48,257 nucleotides of DNA from positions 1 to 48,257 of the forward strand of contig VRUN01000005.1 in the NCBI GenBank assembly GCA_019456075.1. The letters are read 5' to 3'. Both the position numbers and the translations under genes were made by a program. This document shows positions 2,504-24,339 of the stretch, one piece after another. The notes under the pieces were generated by a model. That model worked only from the letters and a program-made list of their open reading frames with translations, was not told the DNA's origin and searched no databases. This DNA comes from Candidatus Methylomirabilota bacterium. Lineage in GTDB: Bacteria; Methylomirabilota; Methylomirabilia; Methylomirabilales; CSP1-5. Each line of letters opens with the position of its first letter. Within the stretch, counting starts at the first letter, position 1.

Positions 2504-3841
2504 TCAGTCACTTCCCGTGCGGGAGCGTCCTCCTCGAAACCGGAGGCGGATGGGGTTTCCCTCGAAGCCGTAGGTATCCCGAAACCGATTCACCAGGTAT
2601 CGAGCATAGGATGGGGAAATGCTTTGGGGGGCGTTCGTGAAGAGGCCAAAGGTGGGTGGCCGGCATCCCAGCTGGGTCGCGTAACGGATCTTGATCTGCC
2701 GCCCCTTGGGCGCCGAGGGCGGGTGTTCTGTCACTACCTTGTCGACGAATTGATTGAGCTCACTGGTCGGTATGCGGCGATCCCCCTCTTTCAGCACGCG
2801 CTCCACGGCACCGAAGATTTTCACTACGCGCTGCCCGGTGACAGCCGAGACGAACAGGACCGGTGCATAGTCGAGATGGCCCAGCTTTTCCCGAATACGC
2901 CCGATGTGCTGATCGCCCACTCGTCCGCTTTTCTCCACCAGATCCCATTTGTTCACTACCACGATGGAGGCACACCCCGCCTCGTGGGCAATCCCAGCAA
3001 TTCGGGCATCCTGACGTACCACATCATCTGTCGCATCGAGGAGAATAAGAGCCACATCGCAGCGCTCTACGCTCTTGATGGCCCGCAGGACGCTGTAGTA
3101 CTCGACCCGATAGCTGATTTGGCTCTTGGACCGAATCCCCGCGGTGTCGACCAAAACATACCGTTGTCCTTCGTAGGTAAAGGGCGTATCAATGGCATCT
3201 CGTGTGGTCCCGGGGTCGGGACTGACGATGACCCGGGACTCGCCCAGGATGCGGTTGACCAGCGAGGATTTCCCGACATTTGGTCGTCCGATCACGGCGA
3301 TCGTCACAGCCTTTACAGCCGCCTCCTCCTTCTCTGGCGGAGGGAGAAGGCCTAGCAGGTGATCGAGGAGCTCCCCAACTCCAGTCCCGTGCTCCGCCGA
3401 GGCGGGAAAGACATCGGAAAACCCGAGGCGGTAAAACTCAGCAGCATGGGGATCCCTCTTCGGCGTATCCACCTTGTTGGCAACGAGGACAACCCGTTTC
3501 TCTGTTTTTTGCCGCAGGAGAAGGGCGACCTCCTCATCTAAAGGGGTAAGCCCCTCCTGGGCGTCCAGGAGAAAAAGAATCAGGTCCGCGTCCTCCATCG
3601 CCAATTGGGCCTGCTCGACCACCCGCTCAACAATAGGGGTGGGCGTCCTGGGCTCAAAGCCACCGGTGTCTATGAGAAGAAAAGCCCGCCCCCGCCACTG
3701 AACCGTCCCGTAGTTACGGTCCCTGGTGACGCCGGGGGTCGCCTCGACGATTGCCCGGCGTCCCCCCACCATCCGGTTGAAGAGGGTCGATTTCCCGACA
3801 TTAGGACGCCCGACGATGGCGACAGTAGCCATCCTTTCCAT
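2504..3841 (-). CDS. der: ribosome-associated GTPase Der (EngA)
   Basis: Two tandem G domains (GRPNVGKSTLFN...DTGG...NKVD and GRPNVGKSSLVN...DTAG...NKWD) plus a KH-like C-terminus. Start chosen at ATG 3841 (MERMATVAIVG), preceded by AAGGGG 6 nt upstream. The ORF is open to 3895. Confidence 0.9.
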   Translation of the reverse strand: MERMATVAIVGRPNVGKSTLFNRMVGGRRAIVEATPGVTRDRNYGTVQWRGRAFLLIDTGGFEPRTPTPIVERVVEQAQLAMEDADLILFLLDAQEGLTPLDEEVALLLRQKTEKRVVLVANKVDTPKRDPHAAEFYRLGFSDVFPASAEHGTGVGELLDHLLGLLPPPEKEEAAVKAVTIAVIGRPNVGKSSLVNRILGESRVIVSPDPGTTRDAIDTPFTYEGQRYVLVDTAGIRSKSQISYRVEYYSVLRAIKSVERCDVALILLDATDDVVRQDARIAGIAHEAGCASIVVVNKWDLVEKSGRVGDQHIGRIREKLGHLDYAPVLFVSAVTGQRVVKIFGAVERVLKEGDRRIPTSELNQFVDKVVTEHPPSAPKGRQIKIRYATQLGCRPPTFGLFTNAPQSISPSYARYLVNRFRDTYGFEGNPIRLRFRGGRSRTGSD

Positions 3842-4009: not shown

Positions 4010-4558
4010 CTAGGCAGGGGAAGTGTTCCGGGACCGGGAAATTAACTCGACGGCCCCCCGGTAAACATAGTCCAGCCCTGACAGGATCGTCACGGCCCCA
4101 GTTGCCCAGATGACAGGAGAAAGGACCGCATCCCCTGCCACCATAGTCATGGCCGCCAGAACTGTGAGGATCTGTAGTCCCGTGGTCAGCTTCCCTATCG
4201 CCGACGGCGGATAGCCCAGACGACCGTTTGTGAAGTAAAGGATGCAGGACCCCACCATCAAAACGAGGTCCCTCCCCACCGCAATCACTACAAGCCACAA
4301 GGGGAGTCGGCCTAGAAAGGCCAGGGTAAAAAACGCCGAGCCCAGCAGGATCTTATCCGCGACCGGGTCAAGGACCCTTCCGAACTCCGTCCGCTCGCGC
4401 CGGGACCGCGCCAAGAATCCGTCGAGCCCATCGGTGATCGCGGCCAAGAGAAAGAGCAGGAGTGCCCACGAAAACGCCCCATCGACGAGGAGCACGACGA
4501 TCAGCGGTGCCAGAATTAAACGCAGGAAGGTTAACCCATTGGGGAGATTGAAGATCAC
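4010..4558 (-). CDS. pgsA: CDP-diacylglycerol--glycerol-3-phosphate 3-phosphatidyltransferase (CDP-alcohol phosphatidyltransferase family)
   Basis: 182-aa polytopic protein with the family motif DGLDGFLARSRRERTEFGRVLDPVADK. Confidence 0.85.
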   Translation of the reverse strand: MIFNLPNGLTFLRLILAPLIVVLLVDGAFSWALLLFLLAAITDGLDGFLARSRRERTEFGRVLDPVADKILLGSAFFTLAFLGRLPLWLVVIAVGRDLVLMVGSCILYFTNGRLGYPPSAIGKLTTGLQILTVLAAMTMVAGDAVLSPVIWATGAVTILSGLDYVYRGAVELISRSRNTSPA

Positions 4559-21657: not shown

Positions 21658-22878
21658 TCAGGCAAAGGCGCTCAGGTCTGTGATGTCTTGACCTAAGACG
21701 AGGGTGTGAATATCGTGCGTCCCCTCGTAGGTGTAGAGGGTCTCCAGATTCAGCATGTGACGAATGACCGGATACTCGTCCACAATGCCAGCGGCTCCTA
21801 AGATTTCCCGGGCAAGCCTGGCGATTTCTCTGGCCTTGTCCACATTGTTCATCTTCGCCAGCGAGACCTGGGTGTGGTGGACGTGCTCCGCCTGCTTGAG
21901 TTGGCCCAGTCGGAGACAAAGGAGTTGGGCCTTGGTGATTTCGGTAAGCATATAGACCAGCTTCTGTTGCACAAGTTGGAATCCCGCGATGGGTCGGCCA
22001 AATTGAACCCTCGTCTTGGCATATTTGAGTGCAACGTCGTAGCACGTCATGGCCGCGCCTACAGCTCCCCAGGCAATGCCATACCTCGCCTGATTCAGGC
22101 ATGCGAAGGCTGCCTTGAGTCCCTGCGCGGTCCCGGGCAGTAGGTTCTCCCTCGGTATACGGCAATCTTGAAAGATAAGCTCGGACGTGACAGACGCGCG
22201 AAGGGAGAACTTTCCCTCGATCTCCCTCGCGGTAAATCCTGGCATCCCCTTCTCCACTAAGAAGCCGCGAATCCCTTCGTCGGTCCGAGCCCAGACCACC
22301 GCAACATCCGAAATCGTCCCATTGGTAATCCACAACTTACTGCCATTCAGAATGTAGTGATCTCCCCGGCGCACGGCCTTGGTCACCATCCCTCCAGGGT
22401 CAGATCCGTAATCCGGCTCGGTGAGTCCAAAGCAACCGACTTTTTCGCCCCTGGCGAGCCGAGGGAGCCACCCGATCTTTTGTGCCTCCGTCCCAAAGGC
22501 GCGGATCGGGAACATAACCAGGGCCCCTTGAACCGAGGCAAAGCTCCTGAGCCCGCTATCTCCGCGCTCAAGTTCCTGCATGATAAGCCCGTAGGCAACC
22601 TCGGTAATCCCGGGACACCCGTACCCTTGAAGATTCGCCCCCAGAACTCCCAACTCCCCAAGCCGCGGGATAAGGGCTAAAGGGAAGGTCCCCTGCCGAT
22701 GATGTGCCTCGATGATTGGAAGCACTTCGGCATCGACGAAGTCTCGGACCGTGTTTCGGACCAAGCGCTCTTCATCCGTATAGAGCTCATCTACCCGATA
22801 GTAGTCGAGGCCAGTGAATCGCTCCATTTCGATCTCTGCGAAAAAGGGGACAGATGTCTTGGGAGTGAAAGATACCAT
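21658..22878 (-). CDS. gcdH: glutaryl-CoA dehydrogenase (acyl-CoA dehydrogenase family)
   Basis: Collinear with human and Pseudomonas GCDH: GELGVLG...GYGC.G...VAYGL...ELER.DSG.RS..SVQ..LVM.PI, GCFGLTEP..GSDP, IRGF..EKG, GKFSLRAS, CLN.ARYGIAWG, NLE...TYEGTHDIH.L.LG. An alternative start at ATG 22827 (MERFTG...) would give a 389-aa product closer to bacterial GcdH length. Confidence 0.9.
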   Translation of the reverse strand: MVSFTPKTSVPFFAEIEMERFTGLDYYRVDELYTDEERLVRNTVRDFVDAEVLPIIEAHHRQGTFPLALIPRLGELGVLGANLQGYGCPGITEVAYGLIMQELERGDSGLRSFASVQGALVMFPIRAFGTEAQKIGWLPRLARGEKVGCFGLTEPDYGSDPGGMVTKAVRRGDHYILNGSKLWITNGTISDVAVVWARTDEGIRGFLVEKGMPGFTAREIEGKFSLRASVTSELIFQDCRIPRENLLPGTAQGLKAAFACLNQARYGIAWGAVGAAMTCYDVALKYAKTRVQFGRPIAGFQLVQQKLVYMLTEITKAQLLCLRLGQLKQAEHVHHTQVSLAKMNNVDKAREIARLAREILGAAGIVDEYPVIRHMLNLETLYTYEGTHDIHTLVLGQDITDLSAFA

Positions 22879-22883
22879 GACCG

Positions 22884-22917
22884 CTCAGGGAAGACAAGGA
22901 CAGGCTCATTCCCTGAG
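22884..22917 (-). promoter_or_regulatory. 9-bp stem hairpin ending 5 nt before the upstream gcdH ATG
   Basis: mRNA sense reads CTCAGGGAA-(16 nt)-TTCCCTGAG-CGGTC-ATG. It occupies the position where an SD for ATG 22878 would be expected. Confidence 0.4.
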
Positions 22918-23054
22918 GGAGGGGGAAAAACACACCGTGCGTGATCGTCAGGGTGCCAGCAACTCTGCCCCCCTCATCCCGTACCACTTACCGGGTGACG
23001 ACTCTCGATGTTTGCACCTCCGTCGAATCCAATATGATCCCAATATAATTACAG

Positions 23055-23073
23055 CTGGGGGAAGGTCCCCCAG
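23055..23073 (-). terminator. GC-rich hairpin (possible intrinsic terminator/attenuator) after micro-ORF 1
   Basis: CTGGGGG-ACCTT-CCCCCAG (7-bp perfect stem) lies 13 nt after TAG 23087 and is followed by CTGTAATTATATT (moderately U-rich). Confidence 0.5.
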
Positions 23074-23086
23074 CCAGGCAGTACTT

Positions 23087-23152
23087 CTATTTCTTCTTTT
23101 TGCCTTTTTTCTTCGCCGGCTTAGCTGCCTTCTTCTTCGCCTTTTTACCCAT
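23087..23152 (-). CDS. micro-ORF 1, 21-aa lysine-rich peptide MGKKAKKKAAKPAKKKGKKKK
   Basis: Hand-translated, ATG 23152 to TAG 23087. Preceded by GACGAAAGGGGGTGAGAC (extended SD AAGGGGGTGA, 6 nt spacing). Paralogue 123 nt upstream. Confidence 0.6.
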   Translation of the reverse strand: MGKKAKKKAAKPAKKKGKKKK

Positions 23153-23209
23153 TCAGTCTCACCCCCTTTCGTCACAGATTACCGTTCGCGACCCAGTAAG
23201 GCACCACTC

Positions 23210-23275
23210 CTATTTCTTCTTCTTGGGAGCTGCCTTCTTCGTGGTCTTTTTGGCTGCTTTCCTCTTCTTTGCCAT
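23210..23275 (-). CDS. micro-ORF 2, 21-aa lysine-rich peptide MAKKRKAAKKTTKKAAPKKKK
   Basis: Hand-translated, ATG 23275 to TAG 23210. Has the identical 18-nt leader GACGAAAGGGGGTGAGAC, the same length and the same KKKK-TAG ending as micro-ORF 1. Confidence 0.6.
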   Translation of the reverse strand: MAKKRKAAKKTTKKAAPKKKK

Positions 23276-23305
23276 CCCGTCTCACCCCCTTTCGTCGCAG
23301 GTCGT

Positions 23306-23327
23306 CCCCCTCGGCCTTGCCGGGGGG
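23306..23327 (-). terminator. strong GC hairpin 13 nt after the HEPN gene stop (no U-tail)
   Basis: Plus strand reads CCCCC-T-CGGC-CTT-GCCG-GGGGG, i.e. 9 bp with one bulge and a 3-nt loop. Confidence 0.3.
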
Positions 23328-23339
23328 ATTGGTCCCACG

Positions 23340-23789
23340 CTATAGCAAACGCGTCTGCAGGTCCTTGGCATAGACGCGCTTGGTCACGGCGCCCACCAGT
23401 TGCTCCGCGATGTTGAGCGTCGCTTCCAGCTCATACAGGGAAATTGGGCGGTCTGCTGCCTCCAAGAAATGCTGTCCCTTCTTTCGCACCTGCTCGAGAT
23501 CCTCCACCATAGAGACCTCCTCCTCACCGACGAGGTAGGCCGTCATCTGGAGGAGCGTCCGTGCCTGATCCCGTCCCCTGGGACGGAAACCTTCCGCCAG
23601 CGTCAGGGCCCGGGCCGCTCGCACGATGGCGTGCGCGGCGACGACGTACGCCCACTCGGAATCGGTCCCCACAATCGCCTGCGCCGTCTTGAGATCTTTT
23701 TGCGACCTCGCCATAAGACGATTCGCTCGGTGCAAGTCGGGTGCCACCACCTCCACCAAGCCTCTCGCCTTCAGCTGTTCAAAGATCAT
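23340..23789 (-). CDS. HEPN-domain protein (putative toxin/RNase partner of the upstream gene)
   Basis: 149 aa, all-helical. The layout is typical of HEPN, with AxxLxxAxxDLxxA and AAHAIVRAARALTLAEG helices and a candidate Rx4H motif (RKKGQH). The start overlaps the upstream gene by 11 nt. Confidence 0.6.
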   Translation of the reverse strand: MIFEQLKARGLVEVVAPDLHRANRLMARSQKDLKTAQAIVGTDSEWAYVVAAHAIVRAARALTLAEGFRPRGRDQARTLLQMTAYLVGEEEVSMVEDLEQVRKKGQHFLEAADRPISLYELEATLNIAEQLVGAVTKRVYAKDLQTRLL

Positions 23790-24339
23790 GGAATGACCCG
23801 ATCAAGGAGACCGTGCTTCCTTGCAAGACCTCCCGCAAGAAAGGATCTCCCTCCGCCTTCCGTCGCTGATACTCTCCCTCATCAAAAACCAGGTAATTGA
23901 TACTCCGTCCGATGCGCAGCTCCAGGTCCGCCACACCTCGATTCAATTGCGCCATGCGAGGCCGCCCCACCACCAACACATCAATCGCTTCTCGCTCCGC
24001 AGCGTCGGACTCCCCAAAGATGATAGCGACCCGGATTCCGGGAACACTCCGAAGCGTCTCGCCAATTGCCTGAGGCACCCCTCGCGTCTTGTCGATGATT
24101 GCCTTCAGTTCCGGATACAGGGGGAAGGTCTTGTCGACGGCGTAGTAACGAAGATTGCCAACCTTGCTGCTCGCCAGGAGGCCTGCCTTTTCCAAGTTAT
24201 CTAGCTCCCGTTTTATCCCCGAGATATCTCGATTGAGTTCCCGAACAATTTCCCTCACGTAGAAGCGTTCCTCTGCACGGCTCAAAAAGAGTTCCAGCAA
24301 GTCTACCCGGGTCTCAGACGAAAAGAACCTGTCCAGCAT
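23779..24339 (-). CDS. ArsR-like winged-helix regulator fused to a minimal nucleotidyltransferase-like domain (MNT-like antitoxin candidate)
   Basis: N-terminal wHTH (YVREIVRELNRDISGIKRELDNLEKAGLLASSKVGNLRYYAV). The C-terminal region VAIIFGESDAAEREAIDVLVVG resembles the MNT hG[GS]x9-13DxD core but has substitutions. Confidence 0.65.
   Translation of the reverse strand: MLDRFFSSETRVDLLELFLSRAEERFYVREIVRELNRDISGIKRELDNLEKAGLLASSKVGNLRYYAVDKTFPLYPELKAIIDKTRGVPQAIGETLRSVPGIRVAIIFGESDAAEREAIDVLVVGRPRMAQLNRGVADLELRIGRSINYLVFDEGEYQRRKAEGDPFLREVLQGSTVSLIGSFHDL

Follow-up and report, generated by a model that had tools for sequence, protein, structure and literature searches.

Tails rich in Lys, Ala and Pro that resemble those of histone H1 are found in mycobacterial HupB, Pseudomonas AlgP and chlamydial Hc1/Hc2. 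Other short polycations belong to the ribosome: its small basic proteins measure 24–33 residues, basic residues make up 55–65% of bS22 and eL41, and bS22 and bL37 keep their length and 37–85% identity across phyla (PMC10085706). Here we analyse two Lys-rich micro-open reading frames (micro-ORFs) that lie in tandem on the minus strand of a 48,257-nucleotide stretch of DNA from a Candidatus Methylomirabilota bacterium (assembly GCA_019456075.1, contig VRUN01000005.1, positions 1 to 48,257; hereafter the window). They stand behind two overlapping genes, one for a winged helix-turn-helix (HTH) protein with a degenerate nucleotidyltransferase (NTase) domain and one for a HEPN-like protein. As far as sequence can tell, they belong to an undescribed, NC10-specific family of micro-genes whose predicted products are Lys/Ala-rich polycationic peptides of 12–25 residues. 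An earlier examination of the window, made from its letters alone (the sequence-only reading), had likened the pair to ribosome-bound peptides or to H1-like tails. That likeness survives as an analogy only, and in composition the peptides lie nearer to an AKKA/SPKK-like tail than to helices of the bS22/eL41 type.

Two Lys-rich micro-ORFs behind extended Shine–Dalgarno sequences

Each micro-ORF follows one copy of a leader that carries an extended Shine–Dalgarno (SD) sequence. The elements of the pair are:

23279..23296, minus strand: leader 1, the 18-mer GACGAAAGGGGGTGAGAC, an exact duplicate of leader 2
23275 (ATG) to 23210 (TAG), minus strand: micro-ORF 1, 21 aa, product MAKKRKAAKKTTKKAAPKKKK
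23156..23173, minus strand: leader 2, the identical 18-mer, with its extended SD core at 23159-23170
23152 (ATG) to 23087 (TAG), minus strand: micro-ORF 2, 21 aa, product MGKKAKKKAAKPAKKKGKKKK

This layout agrees with the sequence-only reading in its coordinates, starts, TAG stops and the 21-aa length of both ORFs. We also recovered exactly two copies of the 18-mer, one ahead of each ORF at the positions it had given, an SD-like AAGGGGGTGA whose last base lies 6 nt before each ATG, and an offset of 123 nt that is the same within the window for leader, start and stop. The flanks beyond the two stops, which it had called alignable, match over ~20 nt (TAG.AGT..TGCCT..CTGGG) and diverge beyond.

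Lys codons account for 52–62% of the two micro-ORFs, and the window (G+C content, 59%) contains no other small ORF rich in Lys. With a random-sequence Lys-codon probability of 0.021, the estimated chance expectation per window is ~4e-9 for ORFs in which 20 codons include 11 or more Lys. The window's genes match those of NC10/Candidatus Methylomirabilis-type metagenome-assembled genomes. GCA_044232185.1, GCA_036448175.1 and GCA_044230885.1 carry the locus in identical form, and none of six public copies has a gene call over the micro-ORFs. The exact peptides have no match among ~15 billion proteins, and Rfam returned nothing over the micro-ORF region at the gathering threshold or at E <= 5. Literature searches on Lys-codon attenuators, Lys-rich small ORFs and Methylomirabilis small proteins likewise found nothing relevant. 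The initial impression that the peptides fit no described family holds up well, as five of them gave no match in Pfam or NCBIfam even at E <= 10.

The leaders are extensively complementary to the end of 16S rRNA. The core of leader 1, GAAAGGGGGTGA (23282-23293), is complementary over 12 nt to the 16S 3′ tail UCACCUCCUUUC, one of the pairs being G.U; this tail is the generic bacterial one, taken from established knowledge, and may differ from NC10's own. With the generic tail, the predicted duplex reaches -20.8 kcal/mol over 12 contiguous pairs, and the two leaders rank 2nd and 3rd among all window positions on both strands. None of 100 shuffles equalled the observed matches to GACGAAAGGGGGTGAGAC at <=3 mismatches. 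We set aside the strongest SD-like site in the window (+9546), which lies inside an apparent antisense coding sequence and has no Lys ORF.

The micro-ORFs are kept at one site across NC10

We gathered related loci with a genome scan anchored on gcdH (the gene downstream in the window), a metagenome scan with the leader sequence, and look-ups of increasingly distant HEPN homologues as well as HTH homologues. Counting loci that contain an NC10-type HEPN 3′ end and at least 150 nt downstream, we found one or two Lys-rich micro-ORFs at 34 of 34, with HEPN identity to the window's protein as low as 46%. The frames proposed by the sequence-only reading are thus conserved in relatives at every counted locus. 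These loci encode 31 distinct peptides, each of 12–25 aa. Examples are MAKKKKAGKKKR and MAKKKKAGKKKK; MAKKKKKAAGKKR and MAKKKAAKKKSKKRK; MAAKKKGGKKKKAAPKRK; and MAKKKAKGKKKK and MAKKKAKKARPKKK; two further ones, (GTG)ATKKPAKKAAKKKK and MAAKKKAAKKAKKK, were found in two copies.

Nearly all units, across the lineages, share GAAAGG[G/A]GGTGA unchanged, and an ATG, GTG or TTG follows the SD core of each unit by a few nucleotides (typically 6). Start codons switch from ATG to GTG (L113, L114, L118) or TTG (the second unit of L115) without loss of the start or of its spacing from the SD. Stops are TAG (n=17) or TAA (n=5) and no other. Micro-ORF 2 has strain-level variants (MAKAKKKKAAKPAKKKGKKKK, MAKAKKKKAAVKKKGGKKKKK) next to HEPN genes that are 99–100% identical. 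The sequence-only reading had taken the 21-codon length to be retained, which fails across relatives, where ORFs run from 12 to 25 codons. Length drifts because TAG and TAA are one mutation away from AAG and AAA, and one stop-to-Lys change extends an ORF to the next TAG. The 123-nt register is also not kept outside the window, units being spaced roughly 85–134 nt apart.

An old tandem duplication had been proposed, and the distribution of pairs bears this out: they are present in most NC10 lineages, even where HEPN proteins are only 46–48% identical. Copy number still flips between one and two, and the ORFs of paralogous units are 67% to 96% identical (96% in L120). These copy-number flips and the near-identity of some paralogues point to re-duplication or gene conversion.

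The SD starts 30–56 nt past the HEPN stop at all NC10 loci except two, whose distances are 159 and 246 nt and which carry an insertion at the HEPN stop codon. One insertion, in L104 (~4272-4533), spans ~190–260 nt; the other, in L111 (~2951-3060), is a ~110-nt element resembling a miniature inverted-repeat transposable element, with terminal inverted repeats GTGCCGTTCCAAC/GTTGGAACGGCAC. Both fall exactly at the stop codon, are mutually independent and leave the block of hairpin, leader and ORF intact.

The HTH-NTase/HEPN pair always adjoins the micro-ORFs, and the genes around this block change. Upstream genes vary, and downstream genes differ by lineage (gcdH; OCD-ALDH-ACAD; ALDH-lptC; ALDH alone). 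In the lineages with 46–48% HEPN identity and in L115, L118 and L120, both sides are unlike the window's. We considered gcdH as a conserved partner and rejected it: 80 gcdH loci from other phyla lack the ORFs and synteny, and deep NC10 lineages carry an ALDH or OCD gene downstream instead. We also rejected the micro-ORFs as a general component of the PDC-M05 systems to which the pair is related, as they occur at 0/4 proteobacterial plasmid loci versus 34/34 NC10 loci. The plasmid pairs without micro-ORFs indicate that the micro-ORFs were added specifically in NC10, where the pair occupies a single fixed place in the chromosome.

A 21-nt leader-like sequence, TGCGAGGAAAGGGGGTGAGAC, appeared in an intergenic region of an unrelated organism (L082, L086, L095, L096 and L097, e.g. 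L097 6709-6729). We do not count these copies as relatives; they are followed by ATGCAAGAC... with no Lys-rich ORF and were judged a probable chance match.

Substitution patterns point to selection on the peptides

We examined how related units diverge in ten pairwise nucleotide alignments, without a codon model. In these pairs, which are not fully independent and include units between which gene conversion occurs, 45 substitutions fall 5/10/30 over codon positions 1/2/3 (binomial p = 5e-6). Synonymous and non-synonymous changes stand at 30:15 in the Lys frame versus 5:37 and 6:36 in the other two frames. Gap lengths were 3, 3, 3, 3, 3, 6, 3, 3, 3 and 3 nt, plus one 1+2 pair. The sequence-only reading had argued for selection on the peptide rather than on the DNA and had named synonymous/non-synonymous scoring as a way to refute it. 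The outcome favours the minus-strand Lys frame, with its position-3 excess and its 30:15 ratio, and supports the claim. Together, these patterns show indirectly that the micro-ORFs are probably translated and under purifying selection in the Lys frame.

A purine microsatellite of the (AAG)n type, non-functional and next to chance SD-like motifs, could mimic part of this signature, as AAG repeats change by units of three and the frame would stay open. We regard this explanation as effectively refuted. Substitutions cluster on position 3 of the Lys frame and not on any purine. Third positions of Ala, Gly, Pro and Thr codons show pyrimidine-for-purine changes, so that constraint on a purine tract alone cannot explain the pattern. 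GCN, GGN, CCN and ACN codons are interspersed and kept in frame, the 12-nt SD and the start codon at fixed spacing are invariant, one syntenic site is conserved across a phylum-level clade, and the chance expectation is ~4e-9 per window.

Composition adds to the argument. Across the family, residues are K 61%, A 23%, G 6%, R 4%, P 3% and T 2%, compared with 3.3% Lys in the window's proteome. Among 128 non-Lys residues there is not one D, E, L, I, F, M, W, Y, C, H, N or Q, twelve types that account for 46% of residues in the window's proteome; E, Q, N and M, though a single mutational step from AAG, go unused. Peptides begin M-A/G and carry a net charge of +8 to +14. A C-terminal motif, K-K-[AT]-A-P-[KR]-[KR]-K, recurs in deep lineages, and the KKAAPKKKK end of micro-ORF 1 is seen again in many lineages. 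Judged by this composition, the non-Lys positions are constrained too, so that the constraint is on the peptide and not on Lys codons alone.

Selected products of this size could be dedicated, lineage-specific ribosomal proteins of the Thx, bS22, bL37 or eL41 kind, each occupying a defined rRNA pocket. Their 2–3 kDa size and basic fraction are comparable to those of bS22 and eL41, and the very strong SD and frequent duplication fit high expression. We nevertheless find this reading very improbable. Lengths range over 12–25 residues with rapid strain-level turnover of sequence, the peptides offer no hydrophobic residues for an amphipathic helix of the bS22/eL41 type, neither Pfam nor NCBIfam recognises them, and the genomic context is not one of ribosomal-protein genes.

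Genomic context and predicted transcript layout

On the minus strand, the window reads in order a YhaM-like HD/OB exoribonuclease, the winged-HTH gene, the HEPN-like gene, the two micro-ORFs, glutaryl-CoA dehydrogenase (gcdH) and lptC. The features that bear on transcription of the micro-ORFs are:

23779..24339, minus strand: winged-HTH plus degenerate nucleotidyltransferase gene, 186 aa (PADLOC PDC-M05A, E = 2e-38)
23340..23789, minus strand: HEPN-like gene, 149 aa (PADLOC PDC-M05B, E = 3e-6; Pfam HEPN sub-threshold, E = 0.0075)
23306..23327, minus strand: G+C-rich hairpin CCCCCCGG-CAAGG-CCGAGGGGG, between the HEPN stop and leader 1 (minimum-free-energy and centroid folds)
23042..23076, minus strand: terminator-like hairpin TGGCTGGGGGA-CCT-TCCCCCAGCTG with A/U-rich tail TAATTATATT (scan 23076-23052: 11 pairs, 7 G-C)
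22869..22897, minus strand: promoter-like block TTGTCT-17-TGG-TATCTT (extended -10) of the next unit, gcdH, proposed from its conservation

The first two genes overlap by 11 nt and are adjacent as in PDC-M05 A/B pairs. The 186-aa protein has weak HTH/ArsR matches in Pfam and NCBIfam, and its plasmid homologues (~30% identity) are annotated 'nucleotidyltransferase domain-containing protein'. The HEPN-like family is restricted to NC10/Methylomirabilales. An Rx4-6H motif is not conserved in this family, the His of the window's RKKGQH being variable; what is conserved is R-x4-Y-E (DRPISLYELE in the window, RNLAEYEG in plasmid homologues). With Rx4-6H not conserved and R-x4-Y-E kept, the HEPN-like protein may not be a canonical HEPN RNase.

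The HEPN-like stop lies 47 nt ahead of the first extended SD (GAAAGG...), and the pre-leader hairpin occupies this gap. Its stem is not followed by a U-tract. A hairpin occurs here in every lineage with differing stems (CCGGA/TCCGG, CCCCGGAC/GTCGCGGGG, CCCCCGCGCGGGGG), and where the HEPN stop has an insertion (two loci), it stays with the leader. The most distant lineages have a stem that spans the HEPN stop codon, with only ~45 nt between that codon and the first micro-ORF start. In the stretch from the HEPN stop to leader 1, no promoter of sigma-70 or sigma-54 type turned up in a scan or on inspection of the alignments. A gap of 30–56 nt leaves no room for a promoter, and the micro-ORFs are therefore most likely distal cistrons of the HTH-NTase/HEPN operon; we infer that they are co-transcribed with these genes.

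Nucleotide conservation also extends over ~20 nt ahead of each SD (23297-23316 and 23174-23193, minus strand). This block, with consensus GGGGRATGACCTGCGAGG, is duplicated with each unit, occurs at the same positions in L083, L112 and L114, and exceeds what an SD needs. We identified no promoter or structure in it.

On the other side of the pair, the terminator-like hairpin begins 10 nt past the stop of micro-ORF 2. The corresponding distance from the last stop is 10–12 nt in most lineages and 19–22 nt in one clade. Every lineage keeps the stem GCTGGGGG/CCCCCAGC after the last micro-ORF, with loops that vary and a tail rich in A/U. Many units are also predicted to fold a hairpin that encloses the last Lys codons and the stop (GGCAGCTCC ... 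GGAGTGGTGCC; 23225-23197). We do not claim this structure, for which RNAalifold gave 5 mostly invariant pairs with no useful covariation. A post-stop GGTGCC is conserved in the same region.

Past the terminator-like hairpin (22974-23024, minus strand) lies a third strong SD-like motif, GACGGAGGT here and GAAGGAGGT in most relatives. It is followed ~6–7 nt on by ATCGAG and by 10–11 open codons to a conserved TGA, and the frame is kept in closer lineages, including across one 3-nt indel. As a third micro-ORF (GAAGGAGGT-N7-ATC ... TGA) it was rejected: it opens without a canonical start codon, does not reach significance, and deep lineages have lost it.

The promoter-like block beyond lies outside the micro-gene unit, whose downstream limit it marks, and scores below the 9/12 threshold of the scan. 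Its hexamers and TG are conserved over a variable spacer, and deep lineages have TTGTCT-17-TGCTATCTT and TTGTTC-18-TGCTATTGT. A conserved block of this kind past the hairpin makes the downstream genes appear a separate transcription unit. Within 22869-22925 (minus strand), the block (TTGTCT-17-TGGTATCTT) overlaps an inverted repeat, CTCAGGGA ... TCCCTGAG. ATG 22878, which opens a 406-aa ORF, falls inside the block; the true gcdH start is probably ATG 22827, the internal ATG annotated by NCBI.

The product of gcdH is a glutaryl-CoA dehydrogenase, with PDB matches to E = 1e-133. Elsewhere, an aldehyde dehydrogenase (ALDH) gene takes its place (L104 4939-7432; L107 2531-5024; L115 4522-5973; L118 4651-6129; L120 2315-3799). 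In deep lineages, the best match of this ALDH is alpha-ketoglutaric semialdehyde dehydrogenase, below cut-off, and it is sometimes accompanied by an OCD/mu-crystallin enzyme whose best match is a Pyr2C/Pip2C reductase, below the NCBIfam cut-off. Together, gcdH, ALDH and OCD could form an amino-acid (lysine or proline-type) catabolic set.

These neighbours raise the prospect of Lys-sensing leader peptides, in which the supply of Lys-tRNA(Lys) would set ribosome speed and hence read-through of the hairpin into downstream catabolic genes. The Lys codon share of 52–62% is comparable with His or Phe enrichment in hisL and pheL, a terminator-like hairpin follows 10–12 nt past the stop, and fast evolution outside regulatory codons is typical of leader peptides. 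A bona fide glutaryl-CoA dehydrogenase lies downstream, gcdH, ALDH and OCD are plausible lysine-degradation steps, and genes for the OCD/mu-crystallin enzyme and ALDH stand at the same position in deep lineages. We still consider such a role decidedly unlikely. The sigma-70-like promoter block is conserved between the hairpin and the downstream genes, and only a terminator-like hairpin is predicted; we found no antiterminator pairing, because an ORF made of purines only cannot pair with either arm of the hairpin. Distances are loose, with up to 19–22 nt from stop to hairpin in one clade and 200–900 nt to the downstream gene. The ORFs are linked tightly and invariably to the upstream HEPN gene, whereas downstream genes differ, and the OCD and ALDH assignments in NCBIfam are both sub-cut-off and not lysine-specific. 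Finally, the non-Lys positions are compositionally constrained.

A model for the micro-ORF products

Our preferred reading, which we hold with even confidence, is that the micro-ORFs encode translated, abundant, trans-acting polycationic micro-proteins and form the distal cistrons of the HTH-NTase/HEPN operon. They would be read from the transcript of this operon, which would end at the conserved hairpin just past the last micro-ORF, and the ~12-nt SD placed 6 nt before the start would drive translation of each unit. Ala or Gly at position 2 would favour removal of Met. The products would be small and flexible, like histone-H1-tail or (S/T/A)PKK segments, and could bind polyanions (RNA, ribosomes, DNA) electrostatically in trans, possibly jointly with the HEPN/NTase pair. 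High expression, a trans-acting polycation role and the targets named here are what we infer.

Conservation, the coding signature, the constrained composition, the exceptional SD, the compact layout, the linkage to the pair and the independent phage analogues described below speak for this reading. Several considerations weigh against it. Transcription, translation and peptide accumulation are predictions from sequence, the SD complementarity is based on a generic bacterial 16S tail that may not be NC10's own, and peptides of 12 residues may be unstable. The peptides differ so widely in length and sequence that a specific binding site is less likely. A Lys-sensing leader peptide would also be expected to show purifying selection on its Lys codons. 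A functional tie to the HEPN pair is not general, given that 0/4 plasmid PDC-M05-type pairs have micro-ORFs. Lastly, nucleotide-level conservation of the GGGGRATGACCTGCGAGG block and of both flanking hairpins hints at RNA-level functions that a peptide model leaves unexplained.

This last point leads to an alternative in which the units are a cis-acting, ribosome-loading element at the 3′ end of the HTH-NTase/HEPN mRNA and the peptides are by-products. What would count is ribosome binding at the maximal SD and translation of a short ORF that is unstructured and rich in purines. Possible effects are stabilisation or processing of the transcript, fine control of termination at the neighbouring hairpin, or sequestration of 30S subunits. 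It would account for an SD that is invariant and far longer than initiation requires, for nucleotide conservation both in the hairpins and across ~20 nt ahead of the SD, and for ORF bodies that change fast between strains with identical HEPN genes. Strong SDs with an mRNA-stabilising effect have precedents in STAB-SD and B. subtilis hbs (PMC5737220), and the phage analogues described below likewise pair a maximal SD with a tiny ORF and a hairpin. Against these points, third positions are free and the classes of amino acid stay the same, a pattern that marks selection on a product, and acidic, amide and hydrophobic residues are wholly absent, several of them one mutation from AAG. A ribosome at the 3′ end would not shield upstream cistrons from 5′-to-3′ decay. 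We judge the cis element unlikely, and prefer the micro-proteins.

Standard gene callers miss genes below ~30 codons. Here, clade-wide genes of 12–25 codons show purifying selection, have among the strongest possible ribosome-binding sites and keep a fixed genomic partner, yet neither protein collections nor family libraries list them. Should the peptides accumulate, few bacterial gene products known would be as small or as highly charged, and nitrite-dependent methane oxidisers would have in them a candidate factor for binding the nucleoid, RNA or ribosomes. If they act with the HEPN/NTase pair, they would be a new type of component for a large toxin-antitoxin/defence-like module family.

Look-alike units in viral contigs

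We scanned viral contigs for units of similar design. A first scan, which required M-A-x-K-K after a 10-nt SD, gave 90 loci; 14 of these carry K/G-rich micro-ORFs of 8–28 aa (e.g. MAGKKKGGGKKC, MARKKKGGGKKC, MAKKKAGSGGKKKAK and MACKKKSKKKPKKK). The phage micro-ORFs are unannotated, 12–14-nt complements of the 16S tail (GAAAGGRGGTGATC) stand ahead of them, and a hairpin or terminator follows most. Their contexts vary and include positions after terminase-like, DNA polymerase A, RecA-like and NrdD genes, as judged from predicted protein sequences. The SDs of the phage micro-ORFs are specifically extended relative to those of long ORFs from the same scan:

3′ flank TC: 9/14 micro-ORFs versus 3/68 long ORFs, p = 1e-6
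5′ flank GA: 8/14 micro-ORFs versus 5/68 long ORFs, p = 7e-5
GGGGG variant: 7/14 micro-ORFs versus 5/68 long ORFs, p = 5e-4

A second, less biased scan for a 14-nt SD and a start codon gave 118 matches, ~8 of them K/G-rich micro-ORFs that mostly end KKC or KGC. Phage loci from the two scans with micro-ORFs of 8–23 aa are:

Scan 1: L139, L142, L148, L150, L151, L195, L196, L198, L199, L214
Scan 2: L218, L227, L235, L238, L260, L269, L276

Phage units (e.g. MAGKKKGGGKKC, MATKKGKGGKGGGKKC) share with those of NC10 a long SD complement, of 12–14 nt and so even longer in phages, a start codon, a Lys-rich micro-ORF of 8–23 codons and a hairpin. Phage units differ in being Gly-rich rather than Ala-rich and usually Cys-terminal, and a HEPN pair is not found near them. 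With this common architecture the phage units count as analogues and suggest a recurrent design. It may be general, in which case a simple rule could find it, asking for 12 nt or more of SD complement, then a Lys-rich ORF no longer than 30 codons, then a hairpin. More speculatively, the combination of maximal SD, polylysine-type micro-ORF and hairpin might be a widespread class of unannotated module, present in chromosomes and phages and captured in NC10 as the third and fourth cistrons of a domesticated HTH-NTase/HEPN system, with the peptides, or the ribosomes they hold, working with the pair on RNA or translation control. We think this broader proposal improbable as it stands.

Comparison with known systems

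Histone-H1-like tails share with the NC10 peptides a composition of K, A, P and T without acidic or hydrophobic residues, and H1/SPKK-like motifs recur in the NC10 peptides (AAPKKKK, TAPKKKK, KKPAKK, ATKK). The tails differ in being domains of 100–300-aa proteins; the NC10 product is a single segment of 12–25 residues, encoded as tandem micro-genes with maximal SDs.

Thx (Thermus), bS22 and bL37 (Actinobacteria, Bacteroidota) and eL41 (archaea and eukaryotes) are, like the NC10 peptides, small, basic and easily missed by annotation, and they bind rRNA electrostatically (PMC10085706). They differ in having conserved length and sequence and a hydrophobic helix, features that the NC10 peptides lack, and the latter are encoded behind a HEPN gene.

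The attenuation leaders hisL, pheL, thrL and leuL (14–32 codons) resemble the NC10 ORFs in their enrichment for the codons of one amino acid, in the hairpin that follows and in fast evolution elsewhere. The NC10 ORFs fail two defining features of attenuators, alternative antiterminator and terminator structures and linkage to the regulated operon. They also depart from these leaders in having a maximal SD for each ORF, in their tandem arrangement, in their linkage to the upstream pair and in the constraint on non-Lys residues.

In STAB-SDs (B. thuringiensis cryIIIA; B. subtilis hbs), as in the NC10 leader, pairing with the 16S 3′ end goes beyond the SD core (GAAAGGAGG/GAAAGGGGG; PMC5737220). 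STAB-SDs lie in the 5′ untranslated region with no start codon after them, whereas the NC10 leader is followed at fixed spacing by a start codon and a selected ORF at the 3′ end of an operon.

PDC-M05, a PADLOC candidate system of HEPN/MNT type, matches the NC10 pair in both its A and B genes and in their overlap. Proteobacterial plasmid pairs of this kind have no Lys-rich micro-ORF, whereas the NC10 pair is found at one chromosomal site, encodes a HEPN protein without a conserved Rx4-6H motif and is followed by the micro-ORFs described here.

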